Shown piece by piece: positions 44,301 through 47,300 of a stretch of 64,000 nucleotides of DNA (positions are counted from its first letter, which is position 1; each line of letters starts with the position of its first letter). The position numbers are program-made. Origin of the DNA: Escherichia coli (GTDB lineage Bacteria; Pseudomonadota; Gammaproteobacteria; Enterobacterales; Enterobacteriaceae); assembly GCF_030384885.1 (NCBI RefSeq), contig NZ_CP128613.1; one strand, 5' to 3'.

Positions 44301-47300
44301 ATGCCCTTCAGAGACGGACTCGGACGTAAAAAGGTGTTTTGCCATATTTAATATCACCTAAAGAGAATTTGGTTAGCTCAAACTGTTGTGTGGATTTTCT
44401 GTGGTAGCGGATCCTACCACGACTCTGCAGGTTAAAAACACTGGCAGTCTGAGTGTTAATCGGTATGGATGGATTAACATCTGGATGGCTATTTTAGGTC
44501 AGTTCTTCACCCAATTTCCACTTTTTTTTGAATCGTGTCTCATTCTGTTAAAAACGTGGCTGGAAATTTTTCCTGACAATGCTGGCATTCTGCGTATTTA
44601 TCTTTTGCAATTTTCTGCCATTGTGGGGTATAAAACGCGGCGCGCGGCTTAAATAAAAAGCACACGACGTTTCTTTCGTGTTGCCACTTCCAGCCGGGTT
44701 GAAATCAGAGTTTTGGCTTGTGGGTTCGTCTTAACAGGCGGCCGTGGAGGTGATACGAAATAATGAACCGTTGTCTGCTGCTTAACCTGTCTCACCGTTC
44801 TGGTGAAGATTCGTTCCCCGCACTCTGCATCTCTGCTTTGCATACCTGCCGATGTTATACCCATCTCGGCGCTTCTCAGGATTCAAGAGCTGGTTACAGT
44901 TACTGAGGACTGAACAAGGGCGCTCTTGTAAAAACAAGAGTTTTCTCGTGGTTTCGCCGAACTGTCACACTTACGTTCGGTTATGTGTTTAATAATGTTA
45001 TGAAAAAGAAACCGGTTGCGCAGTCGGAGCGTCAGCATACTTTGCTGGAAAATCCGTGTGCTTATGGGTTGTTATCGCAGTCCCAGGCTGCGATAGTCGT
45101 TAACTGTTTTACACTTAATAAAATAATTTGAGGTTCGCTATGTCTGACGACATGTCTATGGGTTTGCCTTCGTCAGCGGGCGAACACGGTGTACTACGCT
45201 CCATGCAGGAGGTTGCAATGAGCTCCCAGGAAGCCAGCAAGATGCTGCGTACTTACAATATTGCCTGGTGGGGCAATAACTATTATGACGTTAACGAGCT
45301 GGGTCACATTAGCGTGTGCCCGGACCCGGACGTCCCGGAAGCTCGCGTCGATCTCGCGCAGTTAGTGAAAACTCGTGAAGCACAGGGTCAGCGTCTGCCT
45401 GCACTGTTCTGTTTCCCACAGATCCTGCAGCACCGTTTGCGTTCCATTAACGCCGCGTTCAAACGTGCGCGGGAATCCTACGGCTATAACGGCGATTACT
45501 TCCTCGTTTATCCGATCAAAGTTAACCAGCACCGCCGCGTGATTGAATCCCTGATTCATTCGGGCGAACCGCTGGGCCTGGAAGCCGGTTCCAAAGCTGA
45601 GTTGATGGCGGTACTGGCGCATGCTGGCATGACCCGTAGCGTCATCGTCTGCAATGGTTATAAAGACCGAGAATATATCCGCCTGGCATTAATTGGCGAG
45701 AAGATGGGCCATAAGGTCTATCTGGTCATTGAGAAGATGTCAGAAATCGCCATTGTGCTGGATGAAGCAGAACGTCTGAATGTCGTTCCTCGTCTGGGCG
45801 TGCGCGCGCGTCTGGCGTCTCAAGGTTCTGGCAAATGGCAGTCTTCTGGCGGGGAAAAATCGAAGTTCGGCCTGGCGGCGACTCAGGTACTGCAACTGGT
45901 TGAAACCCTGCGTGAAGCCGGACGTCTCGACAGCCTGCAACTGCTGCACTTCCACCTCGGTTCGCAGATGGCGAATATTCGCGATATCGCCACGGGCGTT
46001 CGTGAATCCGCGCGTTTCTATGTGGAACTGCACAAACTGGGCGTCAATATTCAGTGCTTCGACGTCGGCGGCGGTCTGGGCGTGGACTATGAAGGCACCC
46101 GTTCGCAGTCTGACTGCTCCGTAAACTACGGCCTCAATGAATACGCCAACAACATCATCTGGGCGATTGGTGATGCGTGTGAAGAAAATGGTCTGCCACA
46201 TCCGACGGTAATCACCGAATCGGGTCGTGCGGTGACTGCGCATCACACCGTGCTGGTGTCGAATATCATCGGCGTGGAACGTAACGAATACACGGTGCCG
46301 ACCGCGCCAGCAGAAGACGCACCGCGCGCGCTGCAAAGCATGTGGGAAACCTGGCAGGAGATGCACGAACCGGGAACTCGCCGTTCTCTGCGTGAATGGT
46401 TACACGACAGCCAGATGGATCTGCACGACATTCATATCGGCTATTCTTCGGGCACTTACAACCTGCAAGAACGCGCGTGGGCTGAGCAGCTTTATCTGAG
46501 CATGTGTCACGAAGTGCAAAAGCAGCTGGATCCGCAAAACCGCGCACATCGCCCGATTATCGACGAATTGCAGGAACGTATGGCGGACAAAATGTACGTC
46601 AACTTCTCGCTGTTCCAGTCGATGCCGGACGCATGGGGGATCGACCAGTTGTTCCCGGTATTGCCGCTGGAAGGGCTGAATCAAGTTCCGGAGCGACGCG
46701 CCGTGCTGCTGGATATTACCTGTGACTCTGACGGTGCCATCGACCACTATATCGATGGTGATGGTATTGCCACGACAATGCCTATGCCGGAGTACGATCC
46801 AGAGAATCCGCCGATGCTCGGTTTCTTTATGGTCGGCGCGTATCAGGAGATCCTCGGCAACATGCACAACCTGTTTGGTGATACCGAAGCGGTTGATGTG
46901 TTCGTCTTCCCTGACGGCAGCGTAGAAGTGGAACTGTCTGACGAAGGCGATACCGTGGCGGACATGCTGCAATATGTACAGCTCGATCCGAAAACGCTGT
47001 TAACCCAGTTCCGTGATCAAGTGAAGAAAACCGATCTTGATGCTGAACTGCAACAACAGTTCCTGGAAGAGTTCGAGGCAGGTTTGTACGGTTATACCTA
47101 TCTTGAAGATGAATAATTAAGATTATTCCGCTATCGGGTCGATTTATTTACGTAAATCGGCCCGCTTTCTTTTTATATATTCTTAAAAATAATTTAGCTG
47201 CTTTCCTTATTGAATAATCTCCCTACAATCGCTGCATTAATTAAATGCAGAGGGAACGGTTATGAAAAAATGGAAAGTACGTAGCGCGTTGGTGGCATTA

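Follow-up and report, generated by a model that had tools for sequence, protein, structure and literature searches.

The divergently transcribed genes metK and speA of Escherichia coli are separated by a gap of 794 bp, which lies at 44346..45139 of the window analysed here (a stretch of 64,000 nucleotides of contig NZ_CP128613.1, assembly GCF_030384885.1) and contains two small open reading frames (ORFs), yqgG and yqgB, for which we propose regulatory roles in the expression of speA. The arginine route to putrescine begins with speA, which starts at 45140 on the plus strand, while metK (43191..44345, minus strand, according to the ORF list and the RefSeq annotation of an identical strain) starts at 44345 and forms the left boundary of the region. 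All coordinates are those of the window, whose orientation is reversed relative to K-12 and onto which published K-12 positions were mapped, and features lie on the plus strand unless noted otherwise. The sequence of the gap is 100% identical to that of E. coli strain 2013C-4282; among 5426 complete E. coli genomes, all but one (5425) contain it at 95-100% identity. The RefSeq annotation of the identical strain places yqgD at 44401..44652, yqgG at 44763..44906 and yqgB at 45000..45131, the K-12 annotation additionally has yqgC on the minus strand (44649..44864), and Pfam models are available for YqgB, YqgG and YqgC. Parts of the gap, namely the small ORFs and a 498-nt speA mRNA leader, are thus already annotated or known individually, and the new element is the role that we propose for yqgG and yqgB.

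The original prediction for this region, made from the DNA alone, had described about 800 bp between the two genes, a 43-codon ORF ending just before the ribosome-binding site of speA in the arrangement of a regulatory leader peptide, and a remainder with only weak ORFs of 88 and 71 residues. The distance agrees with the measured one, and the 43-codon ORF is yqgB (45000..45131), whose TGA lies within the Shine-Dalgarno sequence of speA. The two weak ORFs are also present and correspond to the annotated yqgD (88 residues) and yqgC (71 residues), but the annotated yqgG, of 47 residues, had been overlooked. Altogether nine ORFs of 41-88 residues can be listed inside the gap when both strands are counted, so that an ORF of this size is common by chance and the yqgB ORF alone is no evidence; the signal that rises above chance is conservation, rather than the presence of an ORF.

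The comparison was based on speA loci fetched from 80 species, from which 75 metK-speA intergenic regions of 633-959 bp were extracted, 57 from Enterobacteriaceae and 18 from Erwiniaceae; three loci of other families, from Dickeya, Serratia and Yersinia, were added later. The divergent gene arrangement and the long gap are both kept across the compared loci; Vibrio and a locus with a 72%-identical SpeA have neither the metK neighbour nor the leader. In the 57 Enterobacteriaceae loci, the leader has a mean identity to the window of 0.754, with 47% of its positions at least 90% conserved, as compared to 0.61 and 19% for the third codon positions of speA in the same species. As a conserved protein gene we regarded an ORF that is intact across genera and in which variation is concentrated at third codon positions.

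The two ORFs lie downstream of a conserved promoter. The speA promoter (44605..44641) consists of a -35 hexamer TTGCAA (44605-44610), an 18-nt spacer and a -10 hexamer TATAAA (44629-44634), and transcription starts at ~44642. Both hexamers and the discriminator are near-invariant in 57 species. The latter, ACGCGGCGCGC / ACGCGGCGCGCGG at 44635..44641, between -10 and +1, is G+C-rich, a property typical of promoters subject to stringent or growth-rate control. The primers used for a fusion carrying the 'entire 5' UTR' (untranslated region) of speA delimit 44642..45139, which is a leader of 498 nt (Adams et al., 2021; PMC7815308), and the published northern blots 'likely detect a yqgG-yqgB-speAB transcript'. 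With transcription of speA starting ~498 nt upstream according to published mapping, yqgG and yqgB are therefore upstream ORFs (uORFs) in a long leader. A promoter-like site within yqgB, TTAACT-16-AATAAT at 45100-45127, was rejected as the speA promoter, as its -10 is poorly conserved and 44642 is the published 5' boundary of the UTR.

The first of the two, yqgG (b4784; 47 codons, 44763..44906), is preceded by a strong and conserved Shine-Dalgarno sequence (GGAGGTGA, 44746-44753) and encodes a peptide that begins with MN and matches Pfam PF23505 with an E-value of 3.3e-38 (130 bits, cut-off 27). It was found by initiation-complex profiling, and a tagged protein, YqgG-SPA, was detected (Weaver et al.). 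The N-terminal two thirds of YqgG are variable and only the last 9-17 residues are kept; in the window, the 17-residue C-terminal motif occupies codons 28-44 (44844-44894) and ends in ...QDSRAG. Entropy along the motif is 6.6/2.3/7.6 for codon positions 1/2/3, and over its last nine codons synonymous codons replace one another without a change of amino acid, with GAT and GAC used for Asp, TCC, TCA, TCT and TCG for Ser, AGG, AGA, CGG and CGA for Arg, and GCC, GCT and GCG for Ala. Across the alignment of the family, M1 and D40 show no variation, and N2, R30, G36, A43 and G44 are at least 90% conserved. An ORF in the same place ends in ...D-[ST]-x-A-G-stop in 14 of the 18 Erwiniaceae loci and, with different codons, in ...(A/T)(S/T)QDSRAG-stop in Dickeya, Serratia and Yersinia, where the copies have no annotated proteins and were located by reading the DNA; a search with the YqgG profile returned annotated proteins only in Enterobacteriaceae and Erwiniaceae. 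Four Enterobacterales families thus share the motif as an amino-acid sequence; its distance from the start is constant, and the stop codon often follows it immediately, as is the case in three to four families. The string QDSRAG is absent from the searchable literature. As a short ORF translated from a 5' UTR, with a conserved C-terminal peptide and a drifting remainder, yqgG looks like a member of the leader-peptide class and, judged by sequence, would be the ORF that carries the true leader-peptide signature, unlike yqgB.

The second, yqgB (43 codons, 45000..45131, with an alternative GTG start at 44985 and its TGA at 45129-45131), is an annotated, experimentally detected small-protein gene whose start codon was detected in vitro by INRI-seq and whose product matches Pfam PF11036 over residues 1-43 of 43 (E 1.4e-30, 105 bits, cut-off 24). 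Its stop codon overlaps the Shine-Dalgarno sequence of speA (tGAGG), 8 nt before the speA ATG. The ATG of yqgB is retained in most Enterobacteriaceae, where the ORF ends in one of two configurations: either with a TGA at -11..-9 relative to the speA AUG, inside the Shine-Dalgarno sequence, or, after a one-base shift that yields ...EVRYV, with a TGA at +5..+7 in speA codons 2-3. Variants with insertions still end at either of these two stops. In Serratia the ORF in this position ends in TAATG, and in Dickeya and Yersinia it ends at +8. Three stop positions, -11..-9, -2..+1 and +5..+7, are used. Of the two frames that stop at the start of speA, one stays open over 51 or more codons (median 74) in 57/57 loci of Enterobacteriaceae and over 37 or more codons in 17/18 loci of Erwiniaceae, as compared to a median of 14 open codons for the alternative frame stopping at the start and of 7 for the upstream extension of the speA frame. 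In these loci, as in Dickeya, Serratia and Yersinia, the stop lies where that of a coupling uORF would, despite changes in frame, length and peptide. An annotation in Klebsiella pneumoniae IS43 fuses YqgB (PF11036) with the N-terminus of SpeA in a protein of 227 residues; this is probably a frame or annotation artefact and illustrates how close the two frames are.

The peptide encoded by yqgB behaves differently from its stop codon. Per-codon entropy is 0.58/0.65/0.57 at codon positions 1/2/3, as opposed to 0.08/0.03/0.92 in speA codons 31-250 of the same species, so that the third-position bias of a conserved protein gene is missing; the blocks CCG, GGG TTG TTA and GCG ATA are invariant at degenerate sites, and the other codons vary at all positions. 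This pattern suggests that selection on yqgB acts on the translation of the stretch and on the position of the stop, and to some extent on the sequence at the RNA level, but not on the peptide. Codon-level conservation, the touchstone that the original prediction had named for its leader peptide, is hence lacking in the 43-codon ORF. Its regulatory reading of yqgB keeps the position and the conserved endpoint but loses the conserved peptide, and it had a precedent, yqgB-speA having already been named a candidate pair for uORF regulation (Adams et al., 2021; PMC7815308); a conserved peptide of the leader type does exist, but in yqgG. The idea of a regulatory upstream ORF is nevertheless supported, because yqgB is real and sits at the expected place. 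Runs of codons such as those of classical attenuators were found in neither ORF: the four Arg codons of YqgG are scattered, and YqgB contains a single one. CGA for Arg30 of yqgG (44850..44852) and ATA for Ile32 of yqgB (45093..45095), both rare codons in E. coli, are invariant in 49/49 unique sequences and in 52/52, respectively, and may reflect an RNA-level constraint or programmed slow decoding.

Coinciding with yqgG is the sole C-rich, G-poor stretch of the leader (44756..44894; ~33% C, 19% G by sliding composition), and C exceeds G in the yqgG ORF of 65/65 species; the composition makes this stretch a candidate Rho loading (Rho utilization, rut) region. A Rho-termination region has been mapped to 44996, ~90 nt past the yqgG stop (K-12 3086055, minus strand; score 3.69, p 9e-20; Supplementary file 2, PMC7815308), and a Rho-dependent Term-seq 3' end flagged 'uORF' to 45197 (K-12 3085854; score 3.1; Supplementary files 1 and 3, PMC7815308), which is 57 nt into speA. 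Effects of rho R66S and of bicyclomycin on the speA leader have been published as well (PMC7815308). Between yqgG and the first of these sites, a terminator-like hairpin at 44910..44955 is formed by the core GCUCUUGU/ACAAGAGU (44922-44941), followed by the U-rich tract UUUUCUCGUGGUUUC, and by outer GAAC/GGUU and GGG/CUC pairings. All of its core pairs (7/7) show compensatory changes, and the observed covariation was reached in 0/500 shuffles. A second hairpin, GCCGAAC...GUUCGGU (44956..44981), has compensatory changes in 2/4 pairs. Attenuation by alternating terminator and antiterminator was considered and rejected: CAAGAGC (44885-44891) could pair with GCUCUUG of the first hairpin in E. coli, but other genera carry CCAGGGC or CCCGGGC in its place with an unchanged hairpin arm, and mutually exclusive hairpins are therefore not conserved together.

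At the other end of the leader, a predicted 16-bp hairpin (45133..45185), in which GUUCGCUAUGUCUGACGA (45133-45150) pairs with UCGUCAGCGGGCGAAC (45170-45185), covers the speA AUG (45140) and the bases just after the Shine-Dalgarno sequence, with speA codons 11-16 as the partner strand. Both arms, including the Ser codons TCG TCA, are near-invariant in 51 species of two families, while speA codons 5-10 between them vary freely. Over these species 94.9% of cells are paired, versus 24-51% when the partner is slid. The Rho-dependent 3' end at 45197 falls 12 nt past this hairpin.

Put together, these observations lead us to propose, with a probability of about 0.55, that two translated uORFs, yqgG and yqgB, gate speA at two points. 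Transcription starts at ~44642 from the conserved sigma-70 promoter and produces the 498-nt leader of the speA(-speB) mRNA. At the first gate, ribosomes translating yqgG, which the C-terminal motif may hold in place, would cover the candidate Rho loading region, and it would be decided there whether transcription reaches yqgB-speA, as it is in tnaC, speFL and mdtU. At the second, yqgB would act as a coupling uORF: the ribosome that terminates on it would open the hairpin and pass on to the speA AUG; when coupling fails, speA would be poorly translated and Rho would terminate inside it, giving the 3' end at +57. An in-frame alternative start of speA 26 codons in (codon 27, 45218) has been reported to give a cytoplasmic isoform; since both the hairpin and the +57 3' end precede this start, the isoforms could respond differently to the leader.

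Several observations speak against such a model. On the side of yqgG, 4 of the 18 Erwiniaceae loci have no clear motif and the Arg of ...RAG is not kept in this family, the downstream structures differ between families, and the published tables list no Term-seq 3' end at the hairpin that follows it (PMC7815308). On the side of yqgB, its start codon was not detected in vivo by Ribo-RET, so that coupling may be weak or dependent on conditions, the overexpressed protein gave a heat-shock (aggregation) signature and not an arrest signature, and YqgB has also been reported to accumulate as a small protein and to have phenotypes. The hairpin over the speA start, in turn, has a minimum free energy of -23.3 kcal/mol with a z-score of only -1.7, its arms lie partly in coding sequence, and none of its pairs shows compensatory changes in the 51 species; because the arms are invariant, proof by covariation was not obtained.

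The individual steps of the model have counterparts in well-established systems. In tnaC-tnaAB of E. coli, as in yqgG, a short translated leader ORF carries conserved C-terminal residues beside its stop codon, and Rho, loading at the ORF or close to it (for yqgG, at a candidate rut region), terminates transcription before the structural gene; however, the residues differ, W..D..P-stop in tnaC as opposed to D-[ST]-x-A-G in YqgG, and the speA leader has a second uORF, yqgB, in between. Closer in function are speFL-speF (speF/orf34; PMC6386406) and mdtU-mdtJI (PMC7815308), which belong to the same putrescine and spermidine pathway in the same bacteria and likewise combine a small uORF, with a conserved C-terminal peptide, with Rho-dependent premature termination. 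They share zero sequence similarity with yqgG, and the experiments on speA concern its dependence on Rho. As speA is a biosynthetic gene, the sign of its regulation and the signal may also differ from those of speFL and mdtU. For yqgB-speA, the counterparts are ordinary translationally coupled gene pairs with overlapping or abutting stop and start: the stop of yqgB precedes the speA AUG by 8 nt, reaches 1 nt into it or lies 5-7 nt beyond it, and the downstream start is predicted to be structured. In contrast to these pairs, the upstream protein shows no selection, and yqgB would therefore be a purely regulatory uORF.

A more specific and decidedly tentative extension of the first gate is that YqgG is an unrecognised ribosome-arrest leader peptide that, through the tail G-x-x-x-D-[ST]-x-A-G, stalls the ribosome when a cationic metabolite of the pathway is sensed and thereby controls Rho. 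The tail, in its usual form ...QDSRAG, is followed by the stop codon immediately or after a short distance; the ligand would be arginine, agmatine, putrescine or spermidine, its likely contact being the invariant Asp, and stalled and queued ribosomes would shield the C-rich candidate loading region, setting the level of transcription into yqgB-speA-speB. The arrest peptide SecM (FSTPVWISQAQGIRAGP) offers a parallel, in that Q(-5), R(-2), A(-1) and G(0) are common to its ...Q-G-I-R-A-G and to ...Q-D-S-R-A-G of YqgG. SecM controls secA via a hairpin that hides the secA Shine-Dalgarno sequence, and the SecM-Gly complex has been reported to clash with release factor 2 (RF2) (PMC4737659). Such a clash would suit the R-A-G-stop of YqgG, and the predicted hairpin over the speA start would parallel the one upstream of secA. 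However, YqgG has no Pro after the Gly, where P166 is essential in SecM, its Arg is not kept in Erwiniaceae, where SecM R163 is essential, and the upstream W/I/F residues are absent. Given the missing Pro and the unkept Arg, we regard this as a resemblance and not as membership.

Three other explanations have to be weighed against the proposal of two gating uORFs. That yqgB encodes a small 'acid stress response' protein acting in trans, and merely heads a yqgB-speA-speB operon with ordinary packing, seems unlikely to us, even though the names point to it: RefSeq calls the product 'acid stress response protein YqgB', PF11036 is a 'virulence promoting factor', and the 'acid stress' name reportedly stems from Hemm et al. 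2010. The overexpressed peptide accumulates and induces IbpA/ClpB, deletion has phenotypes in acid, in colistin killing and in virulence, and ranitidine binding by surface plasmon resonance (SPR) has been reported; in a 2026 study the 43-residue protein is presented as a drug target that has a 'conserved pocket'. Set against this is the sequence itself, as codon positions 1 and 2 of yqgB vary 7-25x more than those of speA, with position 3 below neutral, and the C-terminus and the reading frame change freely while the stop stays at the start of speA. In the same 2026 paper, moreover, the yqgB deletion in Salmonella lowered speA and speB mRNA, both enzymes and spermidine, and arginine, putrescine or spermidine reversed its enhanced killing by colistin; neither complementation nor polarity is mentioned in the text of the paper. 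Since YqgB shows no selection, the deletion is uncomplemented, speA and speB are lowered and arginine or polyamines reverse the phenotypes, these phenotypes may be a cis effect on speA.

We consider it less probable still that the conserved blocks are RNA elements, that is, a structured leader bound by a protein, a small RNA or a small molecule, in which the ORFs are incidental. Such a leader would account for the invariant third positions at 4- to 6-fold degenerate yqgB codons (CCG; GGG TTG TTA; GCG ATA), for the covarying hairpins and the conserved 5' domain, and for a leader more conserved than synonymous sites. It sits badly with ORF openness and a stop position that survive frame shifts and insertions, with the synonymous turnover under an invariant peptide in the yqgG motif, and with the experimental support for the translation of both yqgG and yqgB; a scan of 43000-46000 with Rfam 15 returned zero matches within 44346-45139 even at E<=1. 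RNA elements are, however, compatible with two gating uORFs and do not exclude them. The last possibility is that YqgG functions as a free small protein that uses its conserved C-terminus to bind a partner, for example SpeA or a membrane protein, in which case its location in the leader would be irrelevant to the control of speA. This fits the detection of the tagged protein and the conservation of a peptide motif, but appears improbable to us: conservation is confined to the last 9-17 residues, the distance of the motif from the start is fixed and the stop follows directly in three to four families, and the motif is always part of the leader of speA, where it coincides with a C-rich stretch beside mapped Rho termination.

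The only work on a described speA leader mechanism that we found in the literature is that of Adams et al. 2021. If the two-gate model holds, speA would join speF and mdtJI as polyamine genes run by leader peptides and Rho; if YqgG is indeed an arrest peptide, it would provide a concrete mechanism for the long-known, unexplained metabolite control of the biosynthetic arginine decarboxylase in at least 4 Enterobacterales families.

Upstream of yqgG, the leader begins with a conserved structured domain (44642..44699), in which GCGCGGCU...AGCCGGGU enclose the hairpin GCACACGA/UCGUGUUGC (44660-44684). The sequence of the stem differs between genera while its complementarity is kept, as judged by eye from single-sequence folds. 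A Term-seq 3' end at 44756 (K-12 3086295; PMC7815308), between the Shine-Dalgarno sequence and the ATG of yqgG, points to a stable 5' fragment of ~115 nt (44642-44756) that contains this domain and may be a processing product or a small RNA. In several Citrobacter and Enterobacter species the 5' hairpin is replaced, just after the start of the speA transcript, by an insertion starting TCCGTCATACTTCA(A/C)GTT(G/T)CATGTGCGTT, which resembles a dispersed repeat element and is found in four of the longest intergenic regions (915-921 bp).

The part of the gap adjacent to metK carries the promoter and 5' UTR of that gene. A near-invariant block at ~44446-44520, which holds a repeated TGGATGG, spans the hexamers of a metK promoter-like site on the minus strand (TGGAAA-18-TAAAAT, 44491..44520), which was located by a consensus scan and the conservation profile and is a putative promoter; a search of the block for MetJ boxes found no octamer within 2 mismatches of AGACGTCT. 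The annotated yqgD (83 residues, 44401..44652, or 88 residues at 44386..44652 if started at the TTG at 44386) overlaps this block, which coincides with its conserved stretch, and its 3' end overlaps the speA promoter; in nearly all non-Escherichia species its start codon is not a start and its frame is interrupted. The ORF of yqgC (71 residues, 44649..44864, minus strand; K-12 annotation), antisense to yqgG, ranges from 8 to 140 residues across species, and its sole conserved part, MGITSAG, is the antisense reading of the yqgG motif; it had no ribosome density, and its tagged protein was undetected (Weaver et al.). With frames broken outside Escherichia, yqgC and yqgD lack the protein-level conservation by which their reality was to be judged and, although still annotated, are probably not genes. 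A minus-strand terminator-like match at 44681-44662 was rejected as the end of a yqgC transcript. It is read more simply as the conserved 5' hairpin of the speA mRNA seen from the opposite strand, and yqgC itself is neither conserved nor translated. Beyond metK, two sub-threshold Rfam matches (naRNA4 and BASRCI337) at 43057-43173, between galP and metK, are probably repetitive extragenic palindromic (REP)-type repeat sequence.

Downstream of speA, an ORF of 243 residues with a lipoprotein-type signal (…LLAGCSS) lies at 47262..47993 on the plus strand, between speA and speB, the latter probably at 48129..49049; in K-12, only ~137 bp separate speA and speB. The ORF has no Pfam match, is annotated as 'hypothetical protein' and is present in 3557 of the 5426 complete E. 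coli genomes.

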